Below, one piece after another: positions 7,789 through 61,830 of a DNA stretch of 64,000 nt. Numbering within the stretch: the first letter of the stretch is position 1; every line of letters starts with the position of its first letter. Below the pieces are notes generated by a model that worked only from the letters and a program-made list of their open reading frames with translations, was not told where the DNA came from and made no database searches. The position numbers were made by a program, and so were the translations under genes. The DNA comes from Marsupella aquatica (lineage: Eukaryota; Plantae; Marchantiophyta), in assembly GCA_973895155.1 (NCBI GenBank), contig OZ316896.1, forward strand, positions 14,356,684 to 14,420,683. Direction: 5' to 3'.

Positions 7789-7914
7789 ATTGCAACTACC
7801 TGCCCTCAATAAAACTTGATCCGTGCAAAAGAAGCAGCCACAATAGCGCTATGGTGGAGCTTCAAGGGAGCTCAAATTGACTTTAAATCTTTGCAAATGT
7901 GAGCATCCCCCGAG

Positions 7915-8080
7915 GTCCTCACTTATTTCCTTTATACCCATCACACAAAAGTAAATATAGGGTTTGTTTATTGGGTTTAGAAGAATAGTTTTAAATTTCT
8001 GTAGAAGAACATTAGGGTTTTTTAAATCCAATTTTGAAAATTCTAAGAGATGATAGGGTTTTAGAAATGAATTTTGGGAA
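7915..8080. repeat. AT-rich dispersed (MITE-like) repeat; inverted copy at about 35615-35780, partial copy at about 37915-37960
   Basis: cacttatttcc..tataccca tcacacaaaa...gtagaagaacattagggtttt...tagaaatgaattttg matches the reverse complement of 35615-35780. Confidence 0.7.
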
Positions 8081-9561
8081 TCCGCAGCTCAAATCAGATG
8101 CACATAAACCAAATGATCAGGCATCCTCTGGGCCATGCCTCTGTTCAATCCATAGGTCAAGATGTTGACATTTTTGCTCAAAAAGGTTGAGCATACAAAC
8201 GCTTTTTGCTCAATAAAATTTGGCTGTTTTGTGCATGTACTGAACAGAAAGGAAACGTCAGGCCTGCAAGGTTGAAACGGGGAGGGAGGAAATGCGTAAC
8301 AAGGGCAGGGCCGGCCATGGGAAGCAATGGTGGGTTGGACTAACCATTGGGTAGACTCTCAACCAATCAAATGCTTCAGTGGGCAGGAAGACAGGGTAGG
8401 GGGGTCAGTATAATAATTGAAATAGATTGGGGGTTACCTTTGTCATGATAACTTTTAGTTTGGGGGTCAGCTTAGTAAAAAGCTGTATATTTTAATTGAT
8501 GCAAGTCTTATGACTCATATGTGTCAATGGGATAATTATGCAATCAGATGCCCGATCAGATGTCTATCACAATATATATATATAATTAACATTAACTTAA
8601 CAAGCAGTTTGATAAGAAAATGATACACCTCAGTACAGTCAGGTATCCCTAGTTAAATTTAAGGGTACTAATGGTCTGGTTCTGGATAATGAGGCCTGTG
8701 GCTAGGTGGAAAACTGATTAATGGAAGTAAAAAAACCTACCAAAATTTTGCTAAAAGTGGCAGAGACTTATGGTGGTGGAATGTAGAAAAAACGAAGGTG
8801 GTGGAATCTAGCAAATCTTTGCCACTGAACAAATGCTTGGTAGGAGCAACTCCACCGGCCTACAGCACCACTTACCAGTTGATATTTGGGTGAGTGATGA
8901 GTTTGCTGGTGGGCTGAGTCCAAAAAGTCATGGAGCATCTGGCGGATACCCCCATCAGTGGACGCTAATAGACTGGGTTCTTGCAGTTCAACACAACATC
9001 TGCCATTTGTTGCCATAGCCATCCAGGTGAGCAGCAATGGCGTCATCCACTTGGTTTGGCAAGTCTCTGGAAGGAGCACTTGCAACTTGCACAAGGCACC
9101 GTCTGAGTCAGCGATTTTCCTGGGTTTTAGGGTGCTTAGAGCTAGTTTTTCTTACATTTAGAATGTTTGGTTGCTGGACTTTGGCCAGGGCATCACAGGT
9201 ACGTGTACCCAAGACATTCATACATTATTAGACAGAGCAGCAGGCCAGATAATCGCACTGAAGGTACTCATTAAAATTTTAGATAATGTTAGAGTATAAG
9301 CAAATTCTAGACATTGACAAAGCTTTGGCTTATCTAGGATATAGCTGGTCCATCCTGGTATGCAATTTGTTATTGTCTCATAGCAATTAGTGCAAGGACG
9401 TCTAGGTCATGTAAGCTCGATTGTGTTTAACAAGTTGGGGCCATCCTTCTTTTAGGCATCATATCCAATTTGCCAAATCTTTTGGCGGCAGTGAGACATT
9501 AAGATTGTTTGTTGGCAATTGCCACAAAGAAATTGCAGTAGCTCTTGCTGGTGCTGGAAAT
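8080..9561. repeat. About 1.5 kb dispersed repeat, copy A (probable decayed transposon); copy B at 38140-39721
   Basis: Colinear and highly similar from atccgca.ctcaaa..gatgcacataaacc to gtagctctt..t.gtgctggaaat. Both copies give the broken minus-strand peptide MLHDFLDSAHQ.THHSPKYQLVSGAVGRWSCSYQAFVQWQ. Confidence 0.9.
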
Positions 9562-10679
9562 ATTCTCTTGTTACTCCTCTGTTCATAGTAGCCAAACTAT
9601 TTTATGCCTTAACTTTGTATATGTTATAGTGATGAGAATGGCAGTTGAAGAGTTTCTTATGTTCTCTAGTTACTGATTTGTTTATAGTAGCATAATGGTT
9701 TCTTATGTTACCTTGGTAAATGTTACCTGAAGAGTTTCTTTCTACCCTTTCTTATTTCAAAAATTTGCCAATTAAATAGATAATTGAAGAAATTTACAGG
9801 AAAACACTGATATATCAATCACAACCCATCCACAGGTTATTTTCTTTCACCCCTTATTTACCCCTTTCTTTGTCCAACAAGACAAAGTTTGGGGGGGGGG
9901 GGGGTTGGGGGGTTGGTCAAACAAAAAGGTCCAAGTCCCATACCTTTTGTTTTTCTTGCATTGCATCCTGCAAGTAGATACTTTTAATTACTTGATGTGA
10001 CACTTTTTAGTTTCCATTGTTTTTCACAATGATGGGGTGTTAATGTTTTTCTTTGCCTTGCTTCAACACAAATAGACATGTTTGGTTCTTCTTGCATAAC
10101 TAAACATTCTTGTTTGTGACAAGTTTGTGACCAATAGTGCTAATGTGATGTGGTTGCACATGCTCCAGGGATTTTGGAAGGAGCTTCTAAGGAGGTCCTA
10201 ATTAAAGTAATCTATTACATCTTAATGAGAAATTACAAAGAGAATCATTCTTAAAAGTGATAAAAGAGGACAAAGCTTATGACCATTAATGCAAATCATT
10301 GATCTAAAAGTAATAGTTGTACTCAATGCTAATAATCAACTTATATTAATTTTATGCACAAGTACTTTAAGGAAGCTTCCCATAACTCTTAATTGGAACC
10401 AAAAGATACAAAGTAAAAACTCTGGTGTTGGTAGACTTAAAGTCCATCCGGGCACAGTACACTCTCCCTTGGATTGCTTCTCATTCATGTCTCCAAGGAT
10501 TGCTTTGAAAGCTTGTGTCGTCCAAGTATGGACAGTCCCAGAATGCGGAAGCTTAAGAGGCTCACGTGAGTCGCATTGCTTTCATTTCAAGAACAAATTC
10601 AGTTGAGACGAAGTCGTGATCGACTGTATACAATCCTCAGTACAGCCCAGGATGCCGAAGGGAGCTGTTAATGTGTTGG

Positions 10680-11181
10680 ACTGCTTTGGGGAAGCTTCAA
10701 CTTAAACAAAACATTCACTCAAGTTTTGATCAAACAAGTACACCAGGACGTGGAAGTCTTAGAGATGGTGATGTTTTAGATTGCTTTGAGGAAGCTTGAA
10801 CTTAGAGAAAATGTTCAGTTGGGATCCCAAGTTTTGATCAAGCAAGTACACCAGGACGCGAAAGGCTTAGAGATGGTGATGTTTCAGATTGCTTTGAGGA
10901 AGATTCAACTTTGAGAAAACAATCAGTTTAGATCGTAAGTTTTGATCAAGCAAGTACACCAGGACGCGAAAGGCTTAGAGATGGTGATGTTTCAGATTGC
11001 TTTGAGGAAGATTCAACTTAGAGAAAACACTCAGTTTAGATCGTAAGTTTTGATCAAGCAAGTACACCCCTTAGGATTGCCCCGGTTGTGGAAGGGTTAG
11101 GGTTGGTGATGCGTTAGATTGCTTAGAGAAGCTTCAACTTAGAGAAACATTCAGTTGAGATCAAGTTTTGATCAAGCAAGT
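10680..11181. repeat. Tandem minisatellite, about 108 bp x about 5
   Basis: aagttttgatcaa recurs at about 10721, 10829, 10937, 11046 and 11163, and the sequence between anchors is also conserved. Confidence 0.92.
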
Positions 11182-11397
11182 AATCCGCTCAGAATTTGGT
11201 TGTATCTTTGCTTCGTTTGCAAGGACCTGAACAACTGCAAGAGTTCTGACGTCATCGAGCTTGACACGTTTCCAAGCGAGAGCTACCATAAACATTGTTG
11301 AGAAGATGCCGTACAAACATTACGCTCATTCATTGCAAAAATGGTGATCATTTGAGAGAAATGATTAGAGGTCCTTCAAGATTGACGAATGTCGGAC

Positions 11398-18943: not shown

Positions 18944-19663
18944 CTACGCTCGAAAGCCCTGCTCTTCTTCCTTCTTGCTCCCGAAAAACCCACCAAACCA
19001 TGATGAGCCCCCACTACTGCTGCTGGTCGCCCCGCTGCCAGTCGTGGTGGTACCACTCTCCGACTCCAGCCTTTGGCCTTCATAAGTCCCCGTGGAAAAT
19101 TGTGGAACAGGAGGGGAGTCTGACATAGAAAAACTTGGTGCAGATTGGCCTGCTGGATAAGGCATTGTTGGCGCATAGGCCCCCCCAGCCCCAGCAGGTA
19201 TGGGCATCTGTGGCATGGGCTCTTCCAAAGGTGGGGGCTGCGCCATGTTTGCTGTCAACCGATTGAGCATGATTCCCGCGCCTTCAATGAGAGCCAGAAG
19301 GACACCTCCGAAAACTGCAGATCGAGCAGAAGACCTCATTCCTGCCCTAAGTTGGAGGAATCCACCGGTCGCTGCTCCTGCGGCGATGGAATTCCACGGA
19401 TCCTCCTTTTGTCTAAGATAGACCATCGAGCAATCGAAAGTGGAGAATAAACCCCCCCACACTGCAAAACTACCACCGATTCTAGGGGCATTGATCCGCA
19501 CTGCTTGAGTTCCCCCCAGGACCCTCTCCCCTCGAGGGGAATTCTTCATCCCCCTGATGAAATGCCACGCAGAGCCTCCCACCGCACCCATGCTGAACGC
19601 CCCGCCGATGTCATCCAGGATCCTGTCCGGACACGGCTCCCTCGCATGATCGGGAGTCCCCAT
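18944..19663 (-). CDS. TIM17: Mitochondrial inner-membrane translocase subunit TIM17 with long plant-type C-terminal extension
   Basis: DHAREPCPDRILDDIGGAFSMGAVGG, GGSFAVWGGLFSTFDC and RQKEDPWNSIAAGAATGG are Tim17 signatures. The coding region is a single exon. Confidence 0.97.
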   Translation of the reverse strand: MGTPDHAREPCPDRILDDIGGAFSMGAVGGSAWHFIRGMKNSPRGERVLGGTQAVRINAPRIGGSFAVWGGLFSTFDCSMVYLRQKEDPWNSIAAGAATGGFLQLRAGMRSSARSAVFGGVLLALIEGAGIMLNRLTANMAQPPPLEEPMPQMPIPAGAGGAYAPTMPYPAGQSAPSFSMSDSPPVPQFSTGTYEGQRLESESGTTTTGSGATSSSSGGSSWFGGFFGSKKEEEQGFRA

Positions 19664-20197
19664 CTCCTCCCCTCGATCCCAAACTCCCCGGCACCAGCAA
19701 GCGGAACCGTCTCCCTTCTACTAAACCCTCCCCGCTGCTCAAAATGCAGAACAGTCTCGCAAAGCACCAGGAAGCGAGCAATTCCAATACCAGATGGTGA
19801 TGCTCCTGCCTAGAGGCGCCCTGCTGCCGACGGAAGGCGACGACGATAATTGTCGACCAGTTTCAGAATCACGAGATCCCCTTCGCAAGTAAAGCAAAGC
19901 AAAGCTATAGCACTACAACCCTCTACAGTAGATTTGCCGTGCCTCCGGAAAACCTAAACGAAACTTCAAAGGGAGCGGAAACGTGCGATGTAACTGTAAA
20001 CCCCTCACCGTCAAAGCTTCATTGAGCATCATTGTGAGTACGATTTACACTGAAAACCCAAAACGCGAGAGACATGGACGTGGATCTCGAAGGAAGAAGG
20101 AGCGGACATGAATGAACAAACACAAACGACCTTCTTCTAGAGTGAGAATTGTCGCTGTTCCCGACGGAGTGACGGAGGAACGGCTGTAGCGTTTCTT

Positions 20198-25163: not shown

Positions 25164-28100
25164 ATGTCAGGGGCGGAGTTGGCTGTTGTCTTGCCTGTCT
25201 TGTCGACCGTCTTCAAAGCTGCGGGGCAGTTGGTTATGTCATTGCGGGAGGTGCGCGCCATAAAAAAGCACAACGTCGTCATTGCACAAGAAATCGAGCA
25301 CTTTATAAAGTCCTTGAATGAAAACATTGATCTGCTGAAGAAGCAGCGACCCAACAAGCAATCATGGGCGCTCGTTTTCTGCACTCACTCACATTGTCTT
25401 ATGCTTTGGGCAAATCAAATTGAAAGTGGCACAGTAAGTTTCAGACTGATGCAGGAGCCAGCTGCACTGTTAAGTTGCGATTCCCTTTTATTAACGTAAT
25501 GGGGCACTGACACTGTTGCGAGGATCCAACTTCATTGTTGCAAAGTTTCTTGCTACCTCTATATGGTAAGCTAACCCACCTCAACTTGGCATTGGTGGGT
25601 TTGCACGGGGCTTGGTAATCAGAATCATTGGAAACGGATTTGAATGGGGTCACCTGTTACTTGGAGGACAACTTGAAGAACGGGAGATTCCGTCGATTTT
25701 GGGATGCAAAGCAGATCAAGGACGAGCTAGAGAGGCTTCGACAAGATCTAATCAACAAGTTCCAAGTGAAGCTATTTGTCACTAACCTCGAGGTTCGTAT
25801 CTTTGGATACCTGGCAGACGACTCCTACTGATTTTTTCGTTAAGACCAATGAAAGCTTGCGGTGGACATAACTCAAAAGTTAGTAGGAGCATTAAGTCGG
25901 ATATAAATTCGAATTCCTTATATAGTTTGATGTGTGTAGATTGAATTTCCAGATGTGGCATCCGTCTAATAAATGGGCTGAACTCGTGCTGAGTTTGGAC
26001 AGGTTACCATCGATGCGGATAAGAAAATGGACGACTTTGGATTCAGGATGATGGAACTCTCATCGAACATGGCAAATAGTCGTACAGACACTGTTGAAAT
26101 CCGGAAGCTACTGGAACCGCTTGTCGTGGGAATGAAGAGGCAAGACGATAGGATTCAGTCCTTGGTTTCGATCGTCGTACAAAACGAAGCGAAAGTTGAA
26201 ACTTCATCAGACACGCAGAAATTTTTAGCAGATGTGAGAACTCCACAGCTCTGCCCAAGATTTGTGTCCGTTCGTTCCTATTGGCATGGCATCGAACAAA
26301 AGTGCCGGTTGGATGTCTAGCTTCTTACAGGTCTACATGTCTAGCTTCTTCGTGAGGTGTTGTCCGAGTTTCGCGCTGCTCAGCTTTCGACTAGGTTTTG
26401 GGCCCATTAAAGAGACCGTCAGACGATTACAAAACATTCTAGGCACTTGCGCATTTTTCCATCTAGTGAAAACCATAATTATTGATTTGGCTTTAGAGTA
26501 CCAACTCCACTCGACGAGCCATGCATGGTGAGTAGCTGCCTTAGTCTTGCTTCTAAATTGTTACACGGCCATTTGGTCGTCATTGTAGAGAGTCCTGACC
26601 TGGCTCATGTGTTTTGTTTTGGGTTGTATGAATGCAGGTGTTGGCGAGCTTACAAGATCTGGCTGCGGACGAAGGATCTTCGAGATCATCTTCTTCGAGA
26701 TCAACACCAGCAGAAGATGACTACGATGACTACCTCGATCCCATCACCGCCGAGCTGATGATTGATCCTGTCAAATGTGTTGATGGAGAAACTTACGACA
26801 GGCTCACGGTTTTGAAGAATAATCTGACTCAGCAAAAGCAATTGGTTATTTCGTGTGACGATGAATCTGTGCGGAGGCGCCTGTTCAAAAAGTTTCCGGA
26901 CGTAGAAAGACTGTTTTACAGACAGCGCAAGTCCTACCGGGATGAAGCCCTCGAATTAGCCGACACAGGCCATAGCGCCGAAGCATTGACAATGCTGAAA
27001 AATGTGTTGATGTGGGCCCCAGCTGACAAGGAGTGCCGCCAAAGGAGAGACGAACTGCAGCTTGTGCTTGATGCTGAAGAGAAGATGGTTCTGCATATGT
27101 CCAAGCTGGAGGAAACCAAACTGGAGAAACAGACGGTTGATATGTCCAAGATGGAGCAAAAGACAGTTTTGGACAGCAACCTGTTTCAGGTTGCCGATAG
27201 CAACCTGTTTCGGGTTGTGAGTAACATCCTGGAGAACAAGAAGGTTGTGAATCCATTAAATATTAATCCTTGCTTATTTTCAAATCCTTCCTAACCAAGA
27301 GATAGTTAAATAATTTTAGCGTCAAACTCTTATGTATATTTGGAAACTCATAGTTGACCAATGTTAGAAGTTTCCACTTCGGGAAACAAGAGGACAGATA
27401 TCCACAAGTAATTGGTTGTGTTTCAATTTTCATTAGTCCTGTTGGATTCCAATGAATCGTTTGCATGTGTTCTAGAAGAAATTAGCTCGAACAGCTGCAA
27501 GTGTAGGGGGTCAGAATGCTCTGAAAGTGGTTTCTCGACTTTGTTCAGGGTAGGACTATACCTCAGAATTCAAGAGCAAGCATTTCGAGGAACGTCTGCC
27601 ATACGAATGTAACTAGTTACGAGGGGGGAGGGGGAGAGACCCAGCAGCTTCTAGGCCTCTATGACTGGAGAAGGGCGGAACCTCAACCCGATGAGGAGGA
27701 GGTTCCCACACATTTGAACAAAAGAACATGCGGGCACTTTCTGGTCACATCCACAGACAAGTTGTCTGCCAAATATACAGAAATTGTACGGGATCATAAT
27801 GACGTCGGCGCAATTCAGGGGAACCGGCCTGTCCCTGACCAAGGGCTTCTGTACTACTTCGAGATCTCGCTGAAAGATCGAGGTGAGAAGGGATATATTG
27901 CCATTGGGTTCACCGATGAGAACTTCAACGTGAGTCGGCAGCCAGGATGGGAGCCGAACAGTTATGGATACCACGGGGATGATGGAATGCTCTACCACGG
28001 GGCGGGTAGGGGGGAGAAATTTGGTCCTACTTTCACCACAGGCGACACTGTTGGTGCCGGCATCAACTATGCTGCGCAGGAGTTGTTTTTCACGAAGAAC

Positions 28101-29486
28101 GGCAAGCTAGTTGGCACAACATTCAACGACATGAAGGGGCCAGTATATCCCACTGTGGGTATGCACAGTCGGAACGAAGAGGTGGAGGTGAATTTTGGCC
28201 AGAAGCCCTTCACATTTGATGTGGCTGGTCTAGTTCAGGAGGAGCAGGAACGTATCCAGAGCTCTATGTTACGATTCAACGACGAACTCAAATTCAAGAA
28301 GCAAAAAGTTCCCACACATTTCAACACCAGCACATGCAGGCCCTTTGTGGTCACATCCACAGACAAGTTGTCTGCCAAATATACAAAAATTATACGGGAT
28401 CATGTCAAAGACGTAGGCGCAATTCAGGGGAACCTGCCTGTCCCTGACCAAGGGCTTCTGTACTACTTCGAGATCTCGCTGAAAGATCGAGGTGAGAAGG
28501 GATATATAGCCATTGGATTCACCGATGAGAACTTCAACATGTGTCGGCAGCCAGGATGGGAGCCGAACAGTTATGGATACCACGGAGATGATGGAATGCT
28601 CTACCACGGGGCAGGTATTAGGGACAAATTTGGTCCTACTTTCACCACAGGCGACACTGTAGGTGCTGGCATCAACTATGCTGCGCAGGAGTTGTTTTTC
28701 ACGAAGAATGGCAAGCTAGTGGGCACCACATTGAACGATACGAAGGGGCCATTGTATCCCACTGTGGGTATGCACAGTCAAAACGAAGAGGTAGAGGTGA
28801 ATTTTGGCCAGAAGCCCTTCATATTTGATGTGGCTGGTTTAATCCAGGAGGAGCAGGAACGTATCCATAGCTCTATGTTACGAATCAACAACGATCTTGA
28901 ACTCAAGAAGCAAAAAGTTCCCACACATTTCCACACAAGAACATGCGGGCACTTTCTGATCACATCCACAGACAAGTTGTCTGCCAAATATACAGAAATT
29001 GTACAGGATCATGACGTCGGCGCAATTCAGGGGAACCTGCCTGTCCCTGACCAAGGGCTTCTGTACTACTTCGAGATCTCGCTGAAAGATCGAGGTGAGA
29101 AGGGATCTATAGCCATTGGATTCACCGATGAGAACTTCAACATGTGTCGGCAGCCAGGATGGGAGCCGAACAGTTATGGATACCACGGAGATGATGGAAT
29201 GCTCTACCACGGGGCAGGTATTAGGGACAAATTTGGTCCTACTTTCACCACAGGCGACACTGTTGGTGCTGGCATCAATTATGCTGCGCATGAGTTGTTT
29301 TTCACGAAGAATGGCAAGCTAGTCGGCACAACATTCAACGACACAAAGGGGCCATTATATCCCACTGTGGGTATGCACAGTCGAAACGAAGAGGTGGAGG
29401 TGAATTTTGGCCAGAAGCCCTTCATGTTTGAGGTGGATGCTCTCATTCAGGGCCTCCAGAGGCCATTGGAAAGTGATCATGATTGA
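25164..29486 (+). CDS. Chimeric protein of about 1040 aa: MLKL/UND-like four-helix bundle, coiled coil, degenerate U-box, TPR-like hairpin, 3x SPRY (RanBPM-derived). Exons 25164-about 25370/25433 (junction unresolved), 25623-25792, 26003-26233, 26638-27216 (or 27243), 27549-29486
   Basis: Junctions GAG|gttcgt..gacag|GTT, GAT|gtgaga..tgcag|GTG and GTT|gtgagt..ttcag|GGT are all phase 0. The 55 codons from 27549 are open and in frame with the 590-aa triple-SPRY ORF. U-box-like DYLDPITAELMIDPVKCVDGETYDR; SPRY QPGWEPNSYGYHGDDG occurs three times. Confidence 0.8.
27702..29450 (+). repeat. Intragenic tandem triplication of the SPRY module (units start at 27702, 28308, 28917; periods 606 and 609 bp)
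   Basis: gttcccacacattt (VPTH) begins each unit. The units are near-identical with in-frame indels only. Confidence 0.97.
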
Positions 29487-30895
29487 AAGTACAATTTCCC
29501 GTGAAAACCCAAAAAGCGAGATCTCGAAGGAAGAAGGCGTGGACATGAACCAGCAAACATAATTACATCTCTGTATGTATCTACACTCCAATTCGAGATC
29601 AAACTACTTCGTCGACCCCGTAGCAATTTTTTTGTATAGGGTTCATTTGATTGAGCTACGTCTACCGAAATGGAAAGCCTTGGGCACGAAAGGGTTATGT
29701 CAAACAACCAACGGACAGACACCTCATGAGTCTAATAACAAATCTTATAAACGAGACTAAAGGTGTCGTTCTCTCAGGTCGAGTAATTTCTGAAGCTGAT
29801 CTTCTTACTACTATAACAAGAGTCGCACCAAAAATGGTGGATAGCCCAGTTTACAAACTCACTTTTGGAGGGAACATTCTCTCACCATTGGATTTATGCT
29901 AACATTCTCTGACCATTGTATTTATATTTTCTTTTATCTAGGCCTTTCATTATTCAAAAAACAATCTCCCCTAAACCAAAGGAGACAAAACAAAATATTT
30001 TGGTATGGCACAAAGATTCTCTAGGGAGATATGGGATACTATTCCATGTGAGTACCATGTGTTGTCTTTGGAATAGGGGCACTTGGGACACCATTGTGAT
30101 TTTCTTCCCACCCTCGACGGCTTTTCTCTCCTCAAGATCTTTTCTCACCCGGCTCACGGTGCCTCACTTGCCATTATTGAAACTGTATAAGTACTCTGGG
30201 TGACCCGTAGTACTCACTTCCAAAATGCTAATGTCGCATCTGTAGACGCGCGCCCTTTTGCAGCCCTCCGATTGGGAGCTCAATTATTTTTGTCCGTTCA
30301 TCAAATGAGTCGATCTATGGTTCAAAATTCAAATCTTTTTGAGATCTACGTCTCAGAAAAACCAGATTATTGGATGATGAAAATGAGGGAGAAAATTGAT
30401 AAAAACAGTCCAAACAATCTCATTGTTGGAGACCAAAAATTTGAATGTTCAATTTTTGGGCAGGTCGGGCAGCGACAAGTATTCCAATGGACTTCCCGTT
30501 GAGAAGTTATTGTCGTCCGTTTGGCGTTTCCCTTTAGTATTGCAACCATCGCGGCTCACGCCTTGGGCTCACCCTTGGCCCCCACGGAGACAACACTCCC
30601 CTCATGTAGGCTTCTGGAGACCTGTCACCCCCGGACCAACTTTGGTACTCTATATTTTGCCCTCAACTTGGATTCCAACCCGATCGCATGGGCATGCAAC
30701 TAACTTGCTATGCCCATAACTTTCTAGTTACATGTCCGTCAACGAAGTGCCTTAGCCCGTTGTGATTGGGCCGACACGGTGCTCATCCCCGGGCACTCAG
30801 ATCCCGTTGCCAATCACGGGTCCCTAACGGCTCCACATGTGCCACACCGTATCTCATGCACCAAACATCCGATGCGCATGAAGTAAACTTCTTTG

Positions 30896-33029: not shown

Positions 33030-34425
33030 CCTCAATAAGTGTACATTTGCATTTATTGATAAGTGCATGCCCTTTTTTAGTAGAGTAAAAAATACACCTA
33101 TAGCGTAGGACACCAAATTCACGGCAGGGTGTCAGGGAGTGTGATACACGTCACAAGACTGCTCAATCAAACAAAGTGACGTAAATCATGCCCACTCTCC
33201 AACAAGTGCAAATTTTTGGGGTTTGCACTTATCAAGTAGTCAAAACCTGCTCTCTCCTCTCTTCCGCGCTATGGTGTTGTGCTTTCTTCTCGTCTCTTGG
33301 TGTTCACGTTTGGCGAAGAAGGAGTTTTCCCGATTCTAGTTTGTGCGTGATTTTTGCCGATGAGAGCGTTTCTGCCTTCGTCGGTAGATCTCCTGGTCTC
33401 TTGGTGTTCACGTTTGGCGAAGAAGGAGTTCTCCCGATTCTAGTTTGTGCGTGATTTTTGCCGATGAGAGCGTTTCTGCCTTCGTCGGTAGATCTCCTGG
33501 TTTTGTAGTCCTTTCGACCTTTCGCCGCAGCGGATTAGAAGGTCTGAGATATCGTTGTCCCTCGGTGGCTCCACGACTGTTCTCCGGATTCTGTGTATTT
33601 ATTTTCTGGTGGTGCATCTCCTCTGTTCGCTTTGCGTCTCCAGTCTCGTCCGCTCAGGTTTCTTTCTCTTCCCTTCTTTTTCTTCCTACTTCTTCCTTCC
33701 TTCCTTCGGCTCTTGTTGTCCACGTTTCTCCGTTGGGAAGTCGACCTACGGATTCTGTGTTGGCCGAGTTAATGTGCGAATTGAGACAGAAAGGATGGCC
33801 GATGATGTGATGCGGTAGCGAGACGCAGGCCAGGGCAGGATAGATAGGGTGGGTAGGACAGAAATGGATAGGATAGGACAGGACAGGACAGCAGAGGAGA
33901 GGAAAACTGTAGGCCCGTGTGCTGTTCCATTCCATGCTACCACAATTTGCGCTGCTTTTCAGAGAAGAAAAGAACCTGCCTGGTGAGTGCCTGTAACATG
34001 ACTGGTGGTGGGCTAGGGTATTTGTCGACTATACTTGTCGTGGCCAAGGACGCCTGCTGCGGGTTCCAATTTGACTCCAATTTCGAGAAGCAAGCTTGGT
34101 GCTTGCACCGATATAGCAGAAATTATTAGGGTGCTGTCGATATGTTCAACTCTAACCCAGACCGTTCTACCTTTGTCTAGAATACCTCACTGAGTGATTT
34201 TGAAAATTTGATGTACTAGCAGCGCAACCCTTTTCGTTTCGGTGATCTCGCACGGTGGTTACGCTGTTGAGCACAGGTGCTGGAAACCGTAAAAAACCCG
34301 GCGTTCTCGGGCCGCTTTGCTCCCATCCGTAGAGCTCGAGATCATGATCTAGGGGATTATTGATTCGGCGGGCGCGGCTTGACAACCTCAGCCTCCTACA
34401 GTAGCTGTTTGGCATTTGCAATAAC
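33030..34425 (+). promoter_or_regulatory. Duplicated RanBPM upstream region / 5' leader (paralogous to about 48360-49815), with an internal 104-bp tandem duplication at 33293-33500
   Basis: Colinear similarity: gtacatttgca..., cttccgcgctatggtg, gatgatgtgatgcggtagcgagacgcagg, (gacag)n tract, ggcatttgcaataacATG. Confidence 0.85.
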
Positions 34426-35082
34426 ATGGGGGGAGACCAGGTGGTTTCTTCCACGATTGCAGGGGGAGGGGGAGGGGGAGGGACGCAGCAGCTTCTAGGC
34501 CTCTCTGACTGGAGAAGGGCGGAACATAAACCCGAGGAGGAGGAGGTTCCCACACATTTGAATTCGAGCACAAGCGGGCTCTCTGTGGTCATATCTACAG
34601 ACAAGCTCTCGGCAAAATACAGCGGGCGTGCAAAGCATGGCAATGATATCGGCGCAATTCAAGGGAACCGGCCTGCCCCTCACCAAAGTCGTCTGTACTA
34701 CTTCGAGATCACGCTGAAAGATCGAGGTCTGAGGGGATGTATTGCCATTGGGTTCACCGATGAGAACTTCAAAATGAGTCGGCAGCCAGGATGGGAGCCG
34801 AACAGTTATGGATACCACGGAGATGATGGACTGCTGTACCACGGGGCGGGTAGGGGGGAGAAATTTGGTCCTACTTTCACCACAGGTGACACTGTAGGTG
34901 CTGGCATCAACTATGCTGCGCAGGAGTTGTTTTTCACGAAGAATGGCAAGCTAGTGGGCACCACATTGAACGATACGAAGGGGCCATTGTATCCCACTGT
35001 GGGTATGCACAGTCAAAACGAAGAGGTAGAGGTGAATTTCGGCCAGGAACCCTTCATATTTGAAGTGGATGCTCTCGTTTAA
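34426..35082 (+). CDS. Truncated RanBPM paralogue: N-terminus plus a single SPRY domain (218 aa), lacking LisH-CTLH-CRA
   Basis: Intact ORF with the same ATG context as 49816. It aligns to residues 1-218 of the full gene and stops at ...FEVDALV*, where the parent continues LVQEERERR. It could be expressed or a young pseudogene. Confidence 0.85.
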   Translation: MGGDQVVSSTIAGGGGGGGTQQLLGLSDWRRAEHKPEEEEVPTHLNSSTSGLSVVISTDKLSAKYSGRAKHGNDIGAIQGNRPAPHQSRLYYFEITLKDRGLRGCIAIGFTDENFKMSRQPGWEPNSYGYHGDDGLLYHGAGRGEKFGPTFTTGDTVGAGINYAAQELFFTKNGKLVGTTLNDTKGPLYPTVGMHSQNEEVEVNFGQEPFIFEVDALV

Positions 35083-35174
35083 GCTCGAAACGTGAGATCT
35101 CGAAGGAAAAAGGATTGGACATGAATCATCAAACATAAGTACATCTGTATATCTATGTATACTACGAGTCGAGA

Positions 35175-35345
35175 CCCAACTCAACTGGGTTTTGCTTACT
35201 GGGTACACTATATACCCAGTAGTACATTAAATACCCAGTCATTCTACATCCAACTATCTTAACCCAACTGGGTTTTGGCTTACTGGGTCCAACTATCTTA
35301 ACCCAACTGGGTTTTGGCTTACTGGGTACACTTACTGGGTACATT
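35175..35345. repeat. Short tandem/dispersed repeats (caactgggttttggcttactgggt)
   Basis: The motif occurs three times, including an exact duplication of about 39 bp. Confidence 0.75.
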
Positions 35346-38139
35346 AAATACCCTGTATGTTAGGGACCAACTGAAAAGCACCCCCTCCCCAACCCTGATG
35401 GGATAATCTTCCCTAAACAGCAGATTTGACAGCTGTAGATTAAGATCTTGAAACTCCAATTGCCAACTTAATAAGGAGTCAACTACTTGATAATCTCTCT
35501 CTCAGGGGCCTCACTCTAAATGGGTGTCTCGTAACCCTTTTTTAGTTATTAAACATACCAAAAAAATTGAAGAGTAAATCTATCCTTATATTTTTGAAAT
35601 ATTCTATAAAAAAATTCAAAATTCATTTCTAAACTCTTATCTTTTCTTATAATTCTCAAAATTGTACTTTAAAAATCTTATGTTCTTCTACATAAATTTA
35701 AAAGTATTCTTTTCAATCCAATAAACAAACTCTCTATACTTATTTTTTGTGTGATGGATAAAAAGGAAATAAGTGAGAACCCTAGGATATCTCTATAATC
35801 TCTCCCATATATAGATCCAAATCCAACAGCCAACCTAATAAGGTGTCAACTAATGTATAATCTCTCTAGAATAATCTCTTCCATATATAGATCCTGGAAC
35901 CAAAAAACTCTGTTCCTGAAATCCAGATAGAGTTATAGTGAGTGGGTTAGACTTGAGTCTACACCAAGAATTTTACCTTCCAATTCTTATGACTCCATTT
36001 TCGAGTCAAATTGTGTGTGGATAAGGCGCTAATTGATCAACAGCAGATGCTTATTAATCAATTACCCGACCCAAGCCTAGTTTTAGGCGGTTGAGAAGCT
36101 CGTCATATGACGCGCAGTGAAATGCCTGGTATAGGGGACTGGGGTAGCTAGCCCAATGAGCCAGTCCCCGGACTAATTCGGCAGTTAGGTAGTGCCCTCG
36201 CTTTGGTACAAAAGGTCCGAAGGCACAGTCCGAACTGCGTTCTATACCATGTCCCATTAGCCCACACGTTCAAAATGGCCTTGCACGAACTGTAGGCAAC
36301 ACCAGTGAGGGTCCACTTCAGTCATCTGGACAGAGGTGGACGTCAGAGAGCCCGTAGTACTCGCCTACCTGAAGGGTGAAAACTTGAAAAATATTTTTTC
36401 TTTTCCTACTTGGCACAAGGGGCTTTCTATAATCCCCCAATTGACAAACCCCCCAAATCTTTTCTTGAAATATCGTAATGTAACAAAGTGAAACACCTGT
36501 TTTCGCTCTTGTTCAATCCGTTGGTTAATATATACATAGATTGGCAATTATTCCAGCCTATCGCAAATAGTGAATGGGTTGGACCTGACTTTCTAGATTT
36601 TCCTACTGGGTTTGGTCAACACCCAGTTACAATAGATGCTCTTAGGGAATCAAGCTAGGTATAGAGTTGGAGTCTAGGCTGCTCTTAGGGAAGCTAGAGT
36701 TGGAGTCTAGGCTGAACAGAGTAAAGCTTGAAGCCTCTAGACCGTGACTGTAGGGCCCTACCAAAGCAAATGTGCGTGTAAAGAAGATATATATAAACAT
36801 TTACAACTATAATAAGGGATCCTGCCTTTCTTCATCCTTCATCCCAATACAAAAAAGCTCTTGGGCGGGAAAGATCCATAGCTGTCGAATTTGATTAGCT
36901 ATTTTCCCTGATCATTGATGAAAAAAATGTGCACCTTTGACACATATGTGCTTCCTGCTGCCCCATAAATGCCCCGGCCCGACTCCCTATGGGCGGCCCT
37001 CCTTGCACAATGCAACGCACTGGCATAGGGCTCGTGATGGTATATTATGTATGACATGAATAAATGAGTATTATTTTTGTCATTTCTCCATTCCCTATTC
37101 AAAGAATGGGAAGAGGGAATAAATTTTATTACATTTTATTATCCTCTCCTCTACTCACCTTCAAAGAAAGATAGTTGGGGAGGGTACCCTCCATTGAAAG
37201 CCACACTTTCGAGCCTAGTATACTCTAGACTGAAACCTCTAACTGCAACTAGTATCCACAAGTGTTGGGGTGAGGCAAGAGGTGGGGAAGTACCTTGGGC
37301 CTAAGCAAAGCTCAGGCATTCAGGCTAGTTAATACTATAATTTGCAATCCAAATTGACCAATCATGACCTATTTGGTAGCTCAGGTGAAGCCAGAGGCCG
37401 TGAGTGATTTCTCTGGTACCAAAAAAATTTGATCAGGTCTCTTCATCTGTTACATAACCAACCTTCCTCAAAGTTACTACAAAAAAAATTTGAATTGCTA
37501 GCTTTCCAAAAAGTGTTTAATGTATTTTTCACATAATGATTATATTTGGGGACATGTAAATCACTCAAACCCATAAACTGCCGAAACAAACTTTTAAAGT
37601 TCTCCTCACATGTCATGTTTCTAGTTGACAACTTTTTAGCTTGTAGTAATTGTGAATAAGGTTCAAAAACATGGTGGGCCTTTCATGTATTTCTCACACA
37701 TATAAGGACTTCATTTAGTGACACTGTGAATAAGTTTCAAAAACGTGGGACTCCGTGGGTCTTTCATGTATTTCTCACATACAGCTTTTTACTATCCTGT
37801 CCCCCAAAGTAAGCTAAATTATTAACTTACCCCCAAAATTATTTTAATTGCTAGGTTGCCCCCCCCATTCTGTATATATGAGTTACTTTCACTGTTTTAG
37901 TTAACCCCAGCTCATGTTCTATAGAAGAACATTAGGGTTTTACAAATGAATTTTGGGAATATTTTGAGAATATTCTAGAAATATAGTCGTAGAAAAATAG
38001 TTCAAAAATTATATTCCCCTTATTTTTTAGGGTGTTTAATAGCTAAAAATATCGAGCATTTTATGAGACCCCCTTTAGAATGAGGCCCCCAAGGAGCATC
38101 CTGAAGCAATTGCTGCTATTTATGGTGGATGGTAAATTA

Positions 38140-39721
38140 ATCCGCAACTCAAAACCGATGCACATAAACCAAACGATCAGCCATGCTCCGGGCCATGCCT
38201 CTGTTCAATCCATAGGTCAAGATGTTGACATTTTTTGCTCAAAAAGCTTGAGCGTACAAACGCTTTTTGCTCAAGAAATGTTGGCTATATTCTGCATGTA
38301 CTCAACGAAAAGGACACGTCGGGCCTGCAAGGTTGAAAGTTTGGTGGGGAGGGAGGAAATGCGTAACAAGGGCAGGGCCGGCCATAGGAAGCAATGGTGG
38401 GTTGGACTAACCATCGGGTAGACTCTCAGCCAATCAAATGCTTCAGTGGGCAGGAAGACAGGGTAGTATTACCCTGATATGGTTTGGGGATCAGTACAAT
38501 AATTGAAACAGATTGGGGGTTGCCTTTGTCATGATACCGTTTAGTTTGGGGGTCAGCTTAGTAAAAAGCTGTATATTTTAATTGATGTGAGTGTTATGAC
38601 TCATATGACGTCAATGGGATATACAATCAGATGTCTGTCACAATTCATACATATATATAATTAACATCAAATTAACAAGCGGTTTGATAAAAAATGATTG
38701 CCCAACATACCCATAGAAATAATTTCAGAACCATGACTGTAGTGATCAAGCTTGTGGGAAATACCCATACACCTCAGTATTGTGATGTAGGCTAATTTTT
38801 TACGGTCACATGTCCCTAAATTTAAGGGTACTAATGGTCTGGTTCTGGATAACTAGGCCTGTGGTTAGCTAGGTGGAAAACTGATTAATGGAAGACAAAA
38901 AACCTACCAAAATTTTGCTAAATGTGGCAGAGACTTATGGTGTTGAAATGTAAAAAAAAGGTGGTGGAATCTAGCAAATCTTGCCACTGAACAAATGCTT
39001 GGTAGGAGCAACTCCACCGGCCTACGGCACCACTGACCAGTTGATATTTGGGTGAGTGATGAGTTTTCTGGTGGGCTGAGTCCAAAAAGTCATGGAGCAT
39101 CTGGAGGATAGCCCCATCAGTGGATGTAGTAGACTGGGTTCTTGCAGTCCACCACAACATCTGCCATTTGTTGCCATAGCCATCCAGGTGAGCAGCAATG
39201 GCGCAATTTGTGTCATCCACTTGCTCAAACTTAGCCAGAAGTGGCATGTGCAAGGCACCATCTGAGTCAGTGATTTTCCTGGGTTTAAGGGTCCTTGGAG
39301 CTAGTTTTTCTTACATTTAGAATGTTTGGCTGCTGGACTCTGGCCAGGGCATCACACTTACCTGTGCCCAAGACATTCAGACATTATTAGACAGAGCAGC
39401 AGGCCAGATAACTGCACTGAAGGTACTCATAAAATTTTAGATAATGTAAGAGTATAAGCAAATTCTAGACATTGACAAAGCTTTGGCTTATCTGAGATAT
39501 AGCTGGTCCATCCTGGTACGCAATTTGTTATTGTCTCATAGCATAATTAGTGCAAGGACCTCTAGGTCATGTAAGCTTGATTGAGTTTAACAAGTTGGGG
39601 CCATCCTTCTTTTAGGCATCATATCCAATTTGCCAGATCTTTTGGCGGCAGTGAGAAATTAAGATTGTTTGTTGGCAATTGCCACAAAGAAATTGCAGTA
39701 GCTCTTGGTAGTGCTGGAAAT
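38140..39721. repeat. About 1.5 kb dispersed repeat, copy B (see 8080-9561)
   Basis: Colinear match to 8080-9561 with small indels. Confidence 0.9.
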
Positions 39722-40940: not shown

Positions 40941-41218
40941 TTATTTAGTTTTACAATGTGAAGCCAAATGGGTTTTAATTATGTACATTTCTATCGATTG
41001 ATTTTTTCAAACTTGTAAACAATTAAAAAATAGAAACATTTTAATATAAAACATTGATAAATCTTTGATAAACACTAGTACATTTTACCTCCTTTTTCCG
41101 ATTCTCTCCACATCGGACGCCTTTGTAAAATAAAATTTGAAAAACCATATATCCGATACTACTAGCATCGCAACATGCCATTTTAATAGTATCGGATATC
41201 GACAATCGGACTTCTATC

Positions 41219-41372
41219 GGAAAGTCCGATGGTGGGAGAATGGGAAAGTCCGATGGTGGGAGAATGGGAAAGTCCGATGCTAGGAGAATGGGAAAGTCCG
41301 ATGGTGAGAGAATGGGAAAGTCCGATGCTAGGAGAATGGGAAAATCCGATGCTAGGAGAATGGGAAAGTCCG
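41219..41372 (+). repeat. 24-bp tandem array (ggaaagtccgatgctaggagaatg) x about 6, left part of the CACTA
   Basis: Direct inspection; this array produces the spurious ESPMLGEW and SDFPILL ORFs. Confidence 0.95.
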
Positions 41373-42224
41373 AAGCAATCAAAATGGGATATGCATTTCA
41401 GCGGACGCGACATGCTCAGGTCACCCATCTCTTCCTTTAATTGGGTTTCTACTTTCATTTGGAACTATGAGCTATATAGGTGCCCATCTCCCTTGACATG
41501 TGAACTCTTCAAATTTTCTCAACTAATTGGTCACCCATCCCAATTGCTATTCCTCCAACATGAGCTTAACTTTGTGGTTCTTATTCCTTACATTGTACAT
41601 GCAAGCTTAGCACTTTTGTTGTTTGACTTAGAGTGTTTGGGGATTTTATGCACTTGTGAGTTTACTAAGACCCATAATTTGGACCCATTCTTGATCCATT
41701 TTTCTCTATCATGAGATTAGATCTTTGCATCAAGTGACCTATTCTAGTTACCCTATTACATTCCCCTAGGAGAAACCAATAGAAATCTGGCACGGGTCAT
41801 TCATCGATAGTAAAGCCCTCCTTCATTAGATTTGATATGGGATAATTATGGCTTATTAGTTATGGATGATATTTTGGTCCTTCCAAAGCCTCAGCGTCAA
41901 TGGCTCCTGATTGTCTCATCTTTTATCAACTATGTTGTTGTTGGACTTGCAACAAAGACTACATGGGACAAACAACCTCCTTCTAGATGATGTATTTTGG
42001 ACTTGGCATGTTGAGCACATATTTCCGTAAGGGAACAATATGTTGGGTCTTGGAATGAGGCAAAAACAACACTCAAGTCCATTTGCCTCAAGTATGAAGT
42101 TATTCATGCATGCAAGAATGATTGCATCTTTTGGGAAGAGTATGTCGGTGCAACCACATACCCCATCTAACACATCAAAACTTTTCATTCTAACACAATC
42201 AAAAATTTTCTTTTTGTCATAACC

Positions 42225-42400
42225 AGACTTTCCCATACTCCCAGCATCGGACTTTCCCATTCTTCTAGCATCGGACTTTCCCATTCTTCCAGCATCGGAC
42301 TTTCCCATTCTTCCAGCATCGGACTTTCCCATTCTTCTAGCATCGGACTTTCCCATACTCCCAACATCGGACTTTCCCATTCTCCCAACATCGGACTTTG
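42225..42400 (-). repeat. 24-bp tandem array x about 7, reverse complement of the 41219 array
   Basis: catcggactttcccattcttctag units. Confidence 0.95.
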
Positions 42401-42789
42401 CCATGTTAGCACAATCGGATATAATATCCGTTCTTATTAACTACGGAAAGTTTCCGATCAATATTGTAACGCACATCATTTTCGTTACAAAAAACATCGG
42501 ACATATCAATCAAAGTTTCTGTTGAGGGATCCGATATGTTTTCTAACGGATATGATCCGTTTTTTAACGCATCGGAAAGGTTCCGTTGTCAATTATATCG
42601 GAAATGAAGATATCCAAAGCCGAGAGTATGGCATATTGCCATTTTTTGATAATCGAAATTTCCGATGCTAAAAGAATCGGACGCCGATTGTTCGCAAAAA
42701 TTGAGCATCGAAAATCAGCTTAATATGTACTAGTGAAACATCAAAATGATAACTTTGTTTTACTAAATGACATCTCTTTCTTTGTATTT

Positions 42790-48000: not shown

Positions 48001-49815
48001 TGTCATTTACTGAAGGTTTTGGCTCATTGCACTTAATTTGTTTATTACTTCACTTTACATGGAAATTCTGTGTTTCTCACTTTCAACTGAAAAACTTTAT
48101 TTTTTAATGTTTTCTCCAAGCCCAATGAATTGTTTTGCTCATTGGCTCCCAAACAATGTTTCAAATAAGATTTATTTTTTTTGTTTGAATTCTAGAATAA
48201 TTGCGCAAAGTCCAATGGCACTACGGTACAATAGAGTACAGTACAAACGACACTGGATAAGTGCAAAGTAAATTGCTCTTGCTTGCACACCTCAAACAAT
48301 GTTAGCAATTACTGTTTAACGGACAGGTCAATAAACTCGCTCCCAAATTATGACAACATTCTCAGTGTACATTTGCACTTATCACTAACAGCAATTGCAT
48401 TTATTGGTAAGTGCATGCCGTTTTTTAGTAACTTACAAAATACACTTTTAGGCCTAGGATGCCAAATTATGATGCGAGTCAAACAAACGCAAACTTTACC
48501 AATAAATGCAAAGTTTTAGGGGGTTTGCAGATCAAGTAGTGCAACCACGGCTTACTGCATACCGGATCCGTTGTCCCGAGTGTGTGCACTTAGAAAGGGC
48601 AGACTACTACAACACTGTACGAAGCGAACCCTATAGGGACACGCACGCTTGGACTCAGAGCAGACGCACGTACTCATGTACCGTATGCGTACCCACCCTC
48701 TACAGTACAGTACTCTAAACGTGTGCGACCCTTCTTTCGTCCTTCTCTCCGTCCTTCGGTTCTATCATTCCTCTGTCCTCTGCTCCTCAGCCTCCTCTCC
48801 CGTCCTCTGTCCTCTCCTCTCCTCTGCTCTCCCTCTTCCGCGCTATGGTGTCGTGCTTTCTTCTCGTCTCTTGATGTCCACGTTTGGCGAAGAAGTGGCT
48901 CTCCCGATTCTGATTTGTCCGTGCTTTTTGGCCGATTAGAGACTCTCTGCCTGCGTCGGTGTATCTCCTGGTTTTGATGTCCTTTCTGCCTTCGGCCGCA
49001 GCGGATTAGAAGGTAGACGATATCGGTGGCGTTTACGATTGTTCTCAGGATTCTGTGTCCGTGTGTGTTTGCCGGTGGTGCCTCTGCTCTGTTGACGTTG
49101 CGTCTCCAGTCTGGTCCGCTCAGGTTTCTTCCTCTTCCGTTCTTCTTCTTCCTACTTCTTCCTTCCTTCCTTCGGTTCTCTTGGCGTCCACGTTTCTCCG
49201 TCGGGAAGTCGTCCTCCGGATTCTGTGTTGGCCGAGTTAGTGTGCGAATTGCGCCAAGGCAGAAGGCTGACAGGCAGGAGGGCCGATGATGTGATGCGGT
49301 AGCGAGACGCAGGGCAGGATAGATAGGGTAGGCTAGGGTGGGACAGAACTGGATAGGACAGGACAGGAGAGGAGACGAGAGGCAACTGTAGGCCGGTGTT
49401 CTGTTCCATGGTACCACAATTGCGCTTCTTTTCAGAGAAGAAGAGAACCTGCCTGTAACATGACTGGTGGGCTAGGGTATCTGACGACGATTCTTGTCGT
49501 GGCCGAGGAGGCCTGCTGCGGGTTCCAATTTGACGGCCATTTTCGAGAAGCAAGGTTGGTGCTTGCTCTGATGTAACAGAAAGTATTAGGGTGCTGTCGA
49601 TGGTTGCCCTTTTCATTTCGTGATCTCGCATGATTGTTACGCTTTTGAGCGCAGGTCCTGGAAACCGTAAGAAACCCTAGCCTTCCAGGTCCATGTTCTC
49701 CGGCCGCTTTGCTCCCACCCGCAGAGCTTGAGATCATCATCCAGGGGGTTATTGACAGTTCAGGGGGCGCGGCTTGGCAACCTCGGCCTCCTAGCTGTTT
49801 GGCATTTGCAATAAC

Positions 49816-51207
49816 ATGGGGGGAGACCAGCTGGTTTCTTCCACGATTGCAGCTGGAGGTGGAGGGGGAGGGACGCAGCAGCTTCTAGGCCTCTATGACT
49901 GGAGAAGGGCGGAACCTAAACCCGAGGAGGAGGAGGTTCCCACACATTTGAATACCAGCACATGCGGGCTTTTTCTCGTCATATCCACAGACAAGCTGTC
50001 AGCGAAATACACCGGGCCTGGAAATCATGGCAATGATGTCGGCGCAATTCAGGGGAACCGGCCTGCTCCTCACCAAAGGCTTTTGTATTACTTCGAGGTC
50101 ACGCTGAAAGATCGAGGTCTGAGGGGATGTATTGCCATTGGATTCACCGATGAGAACTTCAAAATGAGTCGGCAGCCAGGATGGGAGCCGAACAGTTATG
50201 GATACCACGGAGATGATGGACTGCTGTACCACGGGGCGGGTAGGGGGGAGAAATTTGGTCCTACTTTCACCACAGGTGACACTGTAGGTGCTGGCATCAA
50301 CTATGCTGCGCAGGAGTTGTTTTTCACGAAGAATGGCAAGCTGGTGGGCACAGCATTCAAAGACACTAAGGGGCCATTATATCCTACTGTGGGTATGCAC
50401 AGCCAGAACGAAAAGGTGGAGGTGAATTTCGGCCAGAAACCCTTTATATTTGATGTGGATGCTTTAGTTCAGGAGGAGCGGGAACGTCGCCAGAGGTCAG
50501 TGGAAAGTGTGCCACTGGCACTGAGTGTGAGCCACAGCGTTGTGCGGACATATTTACTTCATTATGGATATCAGGACACGCTCACAGCTTTCGACGTGGC
50601 AAGTGGCGGTACCTTTCGACCCACGGTGGTTCCCCCTGCAGACCCTTCGGTATCTGGGACCGAAGATGATACATCTGAATATGCGCTAGAGCAACGGAAA
50701 ATTCTGCGTCGGCTTGCGAGAGAAGGGGACATAGATGGTGTGTTCACCAAACTACGAGAATGGTATCCTGAGCTACTCCAAAACGGTGTGTCGCAGATCA
50801 ATTTCCCTCTTCATTGCCAAAAATATATAGAATTGGTTAAAGCAGGATCTTTGGAAGCTGCAGTGAATTATGCTCGAACAGAGATGGCGAATTTCTTTGG
50901 TATCTCTCCTCTAGAAGATGTGCATTTGCAGGACTGCCTAGCGTTACTTGCTTATGAGCATCCTGAGAAATCTCCAGTTAGCTATTTGTTGCACGTAGCA
51001 CAGCTGGAGGCCGTAGCGGACGCTGTTAATGCAGTTGTCTTAGCCACGAACCCATCAAATCATGGTAAACCACCTCAATCAGCTCTGGAAAAGTTGTTGC
51101 GACAGCTTACTGCTTGTTTAATGGAAAAACGGCAATTGAATGGGGGCCAAGGAGAGATATTCACGTTGCAGCGGGTTCTTCAAGGCGGGAAAGATGGTGG
51201 GTGGTAG
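49816..51207 (+). CDS. RanBPM: Ran-binding protein M / RanBP9-10 homologue (GID1-like scaffold of the CTLH E3 complex): SPRY-LisH-CTLH-CRA, 463 aa
   Basis: SPRY (YYFEV, QPGWEPNSYGYHGDDG, FFTKNG, LYPTVG, VNFGQ), LisH (SVVRTYLLHYGYQDTLTAF), CTLH (RKILRRLAREGDIDGV, LHCQKYIELV) and CRA (ALLAYEHPEKSPV, VADAVN, SALEKLLRQL). Confidence 0.96.
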   Translation: MGGDQLVSSTIAAGGGGGGTQQLLGLYDWRRAEPKPEEEEVPTHLNTSTCGLFLVISTDKLSAKYTGPGNHGNDVGAIQGNRPAPHQRLLYYFEVTLKDRGLRGCIAIGFTDENFKMSRQPGWEPNSYGYHGDDGLLYHGAGRGEKFGPTFTTGDTVGAGINYAAQELFFTKNGKLVGTAFKDTKGPLYPTVGMHSQNEKVEVNFGQKPFIFDVDALVQEERERRQRSVESVPLALSVSHSVVRTYLLHYGYQDTLTAFDVASGGTFRPTVVPPADPSVSGTEDDTSEYALEQRKILRRLAREGDIDGVFTKLREWYPELLQNGVSQINFPLHCQKYIELVKAGSLEAAVNYARTEMANFFGISPLEDVHLQDCLALLAYEHPEKSPVSYLLHVAQLEAVADAVNAVVLATNPSNHGKPPQSALEKLLRQLTACLMEKRQLNGGQGEIFTLQRVLQGGKDGGW

Positions 51208-58400: not shown

Positions 58401-60411
58401 TTGGGACTGAGTTTTTGTTAACCGCTAGAGTTGACTCTTGGCCAAATCCTTTGATTAACCATCCAACGTGTCTTCGAACTTCATTAGTGCTTTTTCATTT
58501 ATTGATTAAACAATGTACCGCCTTTATCAGATTGATTTCTTGTGCACATTTTGCCTATTACCCGGGCTTTCCAACAATCATGCAGTGTCGACTTGTGCAA
58601 TTACTCAAGACTTTGGTCCGACTCTCACTGGTCGCAGACCCCACCTATCACCTAGATTGAAGGTTAAGTATCATCTAACCCTCAACTAATATTTATTTAA
58701 AGAGGATTTCTAAACCCATTGTGGTAGATTCCTCTATTTCTATTTCTTCGTTCACAATTACTCTCTTCCATCTTTCAATAATTTGTCTGCATTTCCTTGG
58801 TGCATTCTCTAGCCCAAATGGAATGCACTTGAATTGAAATGACCAAGCAAAGGTGGGTTCTTTCATGTCCCACTACTTTGAATCTTCCTCTTACAACATT
58901 ATTTGCAAATTTCTAATCATTCTAATCTTGCAAGGTTACTTAATGGTTTGCAATTGCAATCTCCACATGCAATATAACTCCTACTCTTCCTTTAAAAGGT
59001 TCTAACCAAATCCATATAAATTTCCTATTATCAAATGTTATCATTTCTAACCATCTTCTCTTCACAATCAACTCTTAACTTTAATTCTATTGACATTCAA
59101 CAAATACAAGCTCTATAATCAAATGTTTTCTGCAGTTCTACAAATAGGTCTCAATTGCATCTTCCATTCAATGATCACATCAATTTCTTTACATGGATTT
59201 TCTTCCATGGGCTTCCATCTCTACCTCCAGGTCTAGCAATACGACACTACCTCTTCCTGGGCTACCTCCCTAGCCTCCCGATCTTGGAAAGTTTGCACAA
59301 CAAAAGACCCTTTCTCACTCCTACTCGACTAGCCTATACCCTTCATACAAACAGGTTTTTCCTAACTTCTCCTAACCATCAGCAGTTGTAACTGCCAAAT
59401 TGTTTATTCGGTTTCCGTAATAGTATTATTCAACTAAGGCTACTTGTTGACTGCTAATTGTTTCTACTTGTCCATTAACAACTCTTGTTGATAAGTAACT
59501 ATTAACTGTTACTGACTACTAAATAGTGCACGGTCACTTCATTGGTTGTTTGTCAATTAATCTTACTCCCAAGTTGTTGTTCTCTGGTTCTTCCTCTATC
59601 TTTGTTGTTTCAAGCTTGAGTTCATGTACGTATTGTCGCCTCTACTTATTCCACTCTTAGTTCTCCTATTGGTCAATAATGTGTTGAGCTGGTTCTCATC
59701 TTATGAAACCCCAATATCTGTATGGTCCTTTTTCTCTTATCTTCCGTAACTCTTAGAACCCAACACTCATTCATGGCGCGACAACAATTCCTTTCTTGTT
59801 CACTAACTTGTTTATGAAATTCATGTCCAATGATTCCAAACAATTGACAGCTAGCTTCTTCCTACACTTGGTAATATATCATCATTAATTTGCACAAAGA
59901 AATTGTACGTATATTGTCCTGAACCGATTGGCTCACAAAAATGATTCACCTGGTTTTGCCTTGGTGCTCCTATACTCTATTCTTCTCTATTCAGTCTAGC
60001 TCTTTGGGCACTTAGCCCTAAAGCACACAACTTCCCATCATCCAGTAGGATATCGCATCCTTCATAGACCAAGTTGATGCCATGCATGCCCCAGAATTGC
60101 TGCAATAGTGACTCCTAACAAGCTCATAATTCCTGATTGATCCATCGCTACAGAGCTTTCTCCTATAATTCCCACCGATCAAAACTTAGCCTAGATACTA
60201 CACAAAATGAGGCTTCCTTCTGTTTCACATAGTTTAAATACTAGTTGCTCTAACAACTTAACCCCTTCTTTACTCTAACTTTGTAATTAACTTAAAGATT
60301 TGGCTAATCTAAAACTTGATAATTTTCTACTACTTTAGGATCCGAACTACCGGGCCCAGCCCTCTCAGGCTGCTTGTGCTTGTTGTCAGGACCCTTTGCT
60401 TTACCAACTTT

Positions 60412-61826: not shown

Positions 61827-61830
61827 CAAG

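Follow-up and report, generated by a model that had tools for sequence, protein, structure and literature searches.

The 64,000-nucleotide stretch of Marsupella aquatica contig OZ316896.1 analyzed here (the window) carries a gene for a modular protein in which a four-helix bundle at the N-terminus is followed by a helical brace, a variant U-box, a TPR hairpin and, likely, three SPRY repeats. Bundle, brace, U-box and hairpin form the constant core of a family found in liverworts, mosses, ferns and one order of yeasts, to which different C-terminal tails are attached. From its layout the product may be a defence sensor with a head of the coiled-coil (CC) or MLKL type, a reading to which we assign a probability of about 0.45. 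A U-box E3 ligase without any lytic function and a decaying locus are the alternatives weighed below.

The head was reconstructed from two exons. A preliminary description of this DNA had quoted two peptides of a helical N-terminus, and both are real: the first lies in the frame of the ATG at 25164, the second in a different frame at 25625-25792, and evidence from homologues joins them as two exons. A search with exon 4 matched 92 proteins, 58 of them at E ≤ 1e-10. The spliced exons 1 and 2 (127 amino acids), which were not the query of that search, matched 18 of these 92 proteins at the N-terminus with E ≤ 2.3e-6, the E values being relative to this set. The best match, P0003, spanned the junction without a break and had 57% identity over residues 12-127. 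Scored against a profile of 22 plant homologues from which the window was excluded, the spliced head reached 110 bits. Judged from these comparisons, the joining of exons 1 and 2 is more than chance. Together with the match of exon 3 (Table 1), the matches across the junction therefore make the gene model of exons 1-4 well supported. No match came from word-based homologue searches, whether exon 4 or exon 1 (longer proteins) was the query, and sequence searches of the PDB with either exon returned nothing meaningful. The Atlas assigned exon 2 to 30 unnamed clusters at 0.95 and to MLKL_N at 0.77. The MCM8 winged helix gave a weak Pfam match (19.6 bits against a cut-off of 26), which was treated as chance.

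The fold of the head was examined by structure prediction. AlphaFold modeled the N-terminus of the closest homologue (57% identical to the window protein) as a four-helix bundle with a pLDDT of 84 and a pTM of 0.77. In a fold search the top 39 of 48,161 chains included Rx-CC, Cbl-N, MLKL, AtMLKL3, MLA13 and NRG1.1. The best structural match was an NLR coiled-coil and not MLKL, and non-immune bundles were tied or close. These predictions support the four-helix bundle as the fold class of the head. A bundle of the CC type, as in the CC-NLRs of the Rx, ZAR1 and MAEPL types, is predicted, and bundle and brace helices are both present as in MLKL and plant MLKL (PF22215). Of the MLKL/HeLo/UND-like bundle proposed in the preliminary description, the fold class is thus supported, but not the membership of a family. 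Six of 35 members matched Pfam MLKL_N (best E 1.4e-4), the scores listed being 13-19 bits against a cut-off of 27, and the window exons did not match it. RPW8 (PF05659) gave no match. MCAfunc (PF19584) had no Pfam match in the window exons and homologues, was missing from the list of 25 Pfam families for the 35 members and turned up as an Atlas lead only. No HeLo, MCA or UND chains were among the matches listed in the fold searches, an absence that does not exclude them. The Foldseek comparison that had been proposed as a check of the head yielded no match at E ≤ 0.001, and the full model gave weak U-box matches only.

The helices had also been described as amphipathic. This holds for helices 2 and 3, whose hydrophobic moments exceeded those of shuffled sequences (p 0.016 and 0.025), but not for helices 1 and 4 (p 0.21 and 0.14), and the mean moment of the whole domain was reached by 320 of 2000 shuffles. 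Because amphipathicity is only partly above chance, the case for the head rests on the homologues. Helix 1 of the window showed no MADA motif (p 0.21 against shuffles, with the consensus taken from PMC10698375); the window protein starts with MSGAEL, some homologues with MAEL or MADL. A complex prediction for four copies of the head, for which the alignment was not used, scored 0.01 and is evidence neither way. In our judgement it is rather doubtful that the head permeabilises membranes.

The distribution of the family was determined by a taxonomy look-up of 20 of the 92 exon 4 matches and of 24 matches of a profile search. Named records came from Calypogeia, Riccia, Marchantia, Ceratodon, Physcomitrium, Adiantum and Sporidiobolales yeasts, and none from seed plants. 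In the core tree the window protein is sister to three Calypogeia proteins with a support of 99/98, a placement that makes a liverwort host likely. Eleven of the 30 members with head and U-box carry a Pfam tail above the cut-off, namely a kinase (four, each placed after the U-box and TPR hairpin), SPRY (three), ARM, WD40, TPR or ZZ (one each); the other 19 have no recognised tail. The layout from head to SPRY occurs as a single open reading frame (ORF) in P0025, P0027 and P0099. Four fern members have consecutive locus tags. Apparently the U-box-TPR module itself also moves, since it was found C-terminally in P0039 (Calypogeia; hydrolase-NB-ARC), P0032 (hydrolase-like) and P0011 (ARM).

In the basidiomycete yeast proteins P0083, P0111-P0126 and P0129 (Rhodotorula, Rhodosporidiobolus and Sporobolomyces), head, variant U-box and TPR hairpin follow one another as they do in the plant members. 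P0083 was first found with the U-box-TPR exon alone (E 5e-4). The 18 yeast matches among the 24 of the profile search are an inflated number, as the query alignment contained one yeast protein; we relied on a plant-only head profile, against which the yeast heads scored 31-48 bits. The yeast clade may reflect shared ancestry or transfer, and long branches meet in the tree.

Several further features of single members were recorded. P0022, a record without the head, has a long EF-hand array as its tail, and P0099 carries a ubiquitin-like domain behind three SPRY domains. The C-terminal ends of P0003, P0109, P0007, P0021, P0036 and P0044 are cysteine-rich or hydrophobic and by eye resemble membrane anchors. 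In P0058 a candidate second bundle (residues 408-511), and in P0007 a candidate LRR tail, were both rejected as coiled-coil repeats.

The likely tail of the window protein has a traceable source. Its SPRY repeats are of the RanBP9/10 type (E 1.9e-44 to RanBP10 5jia) and are 80-83% identical to the RanBPM-like gene 22 kb downstream, and the 3' flank of the block is common to a truncated RanBPM duplicate at 34.4 kb. At the sequence level, these repeats clearly derive from RanBPM. With the local RanBPM, the SPRY tails of fern and moss members share only 30-49% identity, and they stand on other branches of the core tree; the capture in the window is therefore separate and recent. The SPRY tree was a quick version with long branches, and the claim of independent capture is drawn from the identities and the core tree. 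The neighbouring RanBPM gene likely donated three SPRY copies in the recent past, in an event separate from those behind the fern and moss tails.

We infer that exons 1-4 are spliced to the SPRY block. The block has lost the RanBPM start, and the first methionine of its 653-codon frame lies at 27987, inside repeat 1. All eight tested pairs of donor and acceptor between exon 4 and the block gave an open protein of 1009-1051 amino acids. The ratio of nonsynonymous to synonymous substitution rates (dN/dS) between the repeats was 0.37-0.57 (p 0.005, 0.019 and 0.099), all indels among them are in frame, and each of the three repeats has a rewritten version of a loop that is conserved between the local RanBPM and RanBP10. 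Alternatively, the locus may be decaying, the SPRY block being a separate duplicate that was never spliced on and the fusion a mere juxtaposition. Exon 4 does run to a stop of its own at 27292-27294, and one of the three repeat pairs is not significantly purifying. Decay fits poorly with five frames that are otherwise open, with the eight open donor and acceptor pairs, with a SPRY frame in which the first start comes no earlier than midway through repeat 1 and all indels are in frame, and with the same layout in the single ORFs of P0025, P0027 and P0099.

Table 1. Features of the window, with positions counted from its first nucleotide.
Feature	Position	Strand	Remarks
Exon 1	25164..25374	+	bundle helices 1-2; phase-1 end; 55% to Calypogeia P0108 over 60 amino acids
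Intron 1	25375..25622	+	248 nt, phase 1; acceptor conserved, donor absent in this haplotype
Exon 2	25623..25792	+	bundle helices 3-4; 57.6 bits alone against the plant profile
Exon 3	26003..26233	+	helical brace / coiled-coil region; 53% to P0003
Exon 4	26638..27243	+	acidic linker, U-box, TPR hairpin; donor 27217 or 27244, both phase 0
Variant U-box	26722..26898	+	Pfam 30.6 bits, cut-off 21.4; lacks DRW tryptophan and loop-2 proline motif
TPR-like helical hairpin	26902..27081	+	
Exon 5, inferred	27549..29486	+	three RanBP9/10-type SPRY repeats; no start codon of its own
SPRY repeats 1, 2, 3	27702-28307, 28308-28916, 28917-29483	+	
Truncated RanBPM duplicate, SPRY only	34426..35082	+	likely relative of the captured block; common 3' flank
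RanBPM-like gene, first coding exon (SPRY + CTLH)	49816..51204	+	source of the SPRY repeats
Tim17-family gene	18947-19717	-	Pfam E 1.8e-32
Decayed LTR (long terminal repeat) retroelement pieces	56099-58424	-	zinc knuckle, aspartyl protease, RNase H-like

The truncated duplicate is a 5' partial copy of RanBPM (33389-35181 against 48859-50469) that has an ATG of its own and ends in a stop directly behind the SPRY domain. Its dN/dS to RanBPM is 0.22, and it is possibly a stand-alone SPRY protein. Variation of the SPRY copy number among paralogues was considered and rejected, for the joint at 28833-29518 carries the 3' end of this duplicate. Local duplications and tandem and inverted repeats were also found (7914-9561 against 35617-39721; 10590-11196; 41215-42419; 61829-63694).

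Intron 1 starts with TT instead of GT, and exon 1 ends without an in-frame GT that could serve as donor. Four public runs (X1-X4) were compared with the region. Contigs of X1, X2 and X3 matched the window across the donor site without difference over 994, 994 and 478 nt, respectively. A contig of X4 differed by three letters and by five extra nucleotides that supply a GT donor of phase 1; more distant contigs of X1 and X4 likewise carry the donor in that position. Since three runs match the window and X4 and the distant contigs keep the donor, the 5-nt loss in this haplotype is real. The donor-bearing X4 form may be either an allele or a very recent duplicate. X1 and X2 each contain two further exon 2 contigs with 18-20 differences, which we read as paralogues; 17 of the 28 paralogue changes listed fall at third positions, which is no more than suggestive. 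No joints that skip an intron were present in the four runs, which cover the introns.

Strong donors nearby lead to a stop at codon 97 or 112 or to skipping of helices 3-4, and the four in-frame GT sites are weak. This haplotype is likely null for the intact head. A micro-exon at 25523-25565 was considered as a rescue and is not favoured: it is in frame, but it has a weak GAG acceptor and a 57-nt intron, and its 34-residue insert is absent from the homologues. The missing donor and its consequences, like the eroded U-box, are what a decaying locus would show, while the near-identical X4 contig and the paralogue contigs have kept an intact donor. Overall, we regard decay with mere juxtaposition as quite unlikely.

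A U-box follows the head, so the link to PUB proteins with a UND domain drawn in the preliminary description was right in spirit. The U-box domain of a plant U-box E3 ligase is present, in a variant form. The loop-2 proline motif, kept in 26 of 28 parsed homologues, is gone in the window and in Calypogeia P0003, P0108 and P0109, and the same four proteins have also lost the DRW tryptophan, which most homologues retain. Loop-2 motif and DRW position have a role in the E2 contact of a U-box. Because of both losses, ligase activity of the window/Calypogeia subclade is doubtful.

These data bear on a second alternative, an ordinary lineage-expanded U-box E3 ligase. Its bundle would be a UND/MCAfunc-like module for oligomerisation or specificity without lysis, its tails would recruit substrates, and the SPRY copies would draw RanBPM/CTLH partners. 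Such a plain ligase is nearly as likely as the sensor, because a bundle with a U-box is an old PUB layout. The window protein and its three Calypogeia relatives, however, dropped both E2-contact features and kept the head, and an NLR coiled-coil is what the head matches best in structure. Immune genes, moreover, typically show such repeated tail capture, gene clusters like the one in the fern and variants that, as here, are likely null.

We prefer the defence sensor, a reading based on the constant core with repeated tail capture, the fern cluster, the NB-ARC fusion of the module and the likely null variant. In the proposed mechanism the swappable tail would bind a target and clustering would free the head, which might then signal or damage membranes like NLR coiled-coils and MLKL. 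The U-box would keep the protein low by self-ubiquitination or, in the eroded window/Calypogeia subclade, only scaffold. The immune role of the family is deduced from these features. A broader claim, that seed-free plants possess NLR-independent single-chain immune receptors with a CC/MLKL-type killer head, their own U-box brake and swappable decoy tails, is unlikely on present evidence. If it were true, the capture and triplication of a RanBPM SPRY from next door would mark RanBPM/CTLH as a target of pathogens, and the receptor class would reach across kingdoms, since Sporidiobolales yeasts have the head-U-box-TPR core too. Should the head kill, sensor, brake and executioner would be united in one chain, an NLR-free receptor design that can be tested in Marchantia and Physcomitrium, as both have members. 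Should it not, the question of what the N-terminal bundle of PUB ligases does would become directly testable. The locus also preserves the trace of a domain captured recently from a housekeeping gene next to it.

All parts of the protein are known, as are proteins with bundle and U-box. In the openly readable part of the literature we found no description of a fixed bundle-brace-U-box-TPR core with repeatedly swapped tails; the supplements of PMC11579444, in which the PUB table may be a picture, contained no match. Compared with the coiled-coils of NLRs (potato Rx CC, MLA13, and the CC-MAEPL and Cbl-N types of seed-free plants in PMC11218826), the window head shows about 7% identity and no MADA match. 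Unlike in CC-NLRs, neither NB-ARC nor LRR was detected in the five window gene ORFs scanned. MLKL and the plant MLKLs (AtMLKL3; bioRxiv 681015) differ in that here U-box and TPR stand between brace and tail and MLKL_N stays under the cut-off; the window has no kinase, and directly after the brace no pseudokinase stands either, as U-box, TPR and SPRY follow instead. Fungal NLRs with a C-terminal SPRY as the proposed sensor share its position with the window protein but, according to PMC12258605, own a nucleotide-binding core and ankyrin repeats. TRIM ligases with PRY/SPRY (TRIM21; PMC8450407) resemble it in combining an E3 domain, a helical oligomerising region and a variable C-terminal binder, often SPRY. 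This is an analogy and no family homology: here a U-box replaces the RING, there is no B-box, a bundle head is added and the SPRY is of the RanBPM type and present three times. Also close are the MCAfunc and U-box (and ARM) ligases, such as AtPUB13 and PUB45, and the PUBs with a UND domain (PMC8049495), which have in common an N-terminal helical bundle followed by a U-box; one family member, P0009, also has an ARM tail. From these ligases the family differs by its distinct U-box variant, which is always backed by a TPR hairpin, by tails of at least six kinds and by named records that come only from seed-free plants and yeasts.
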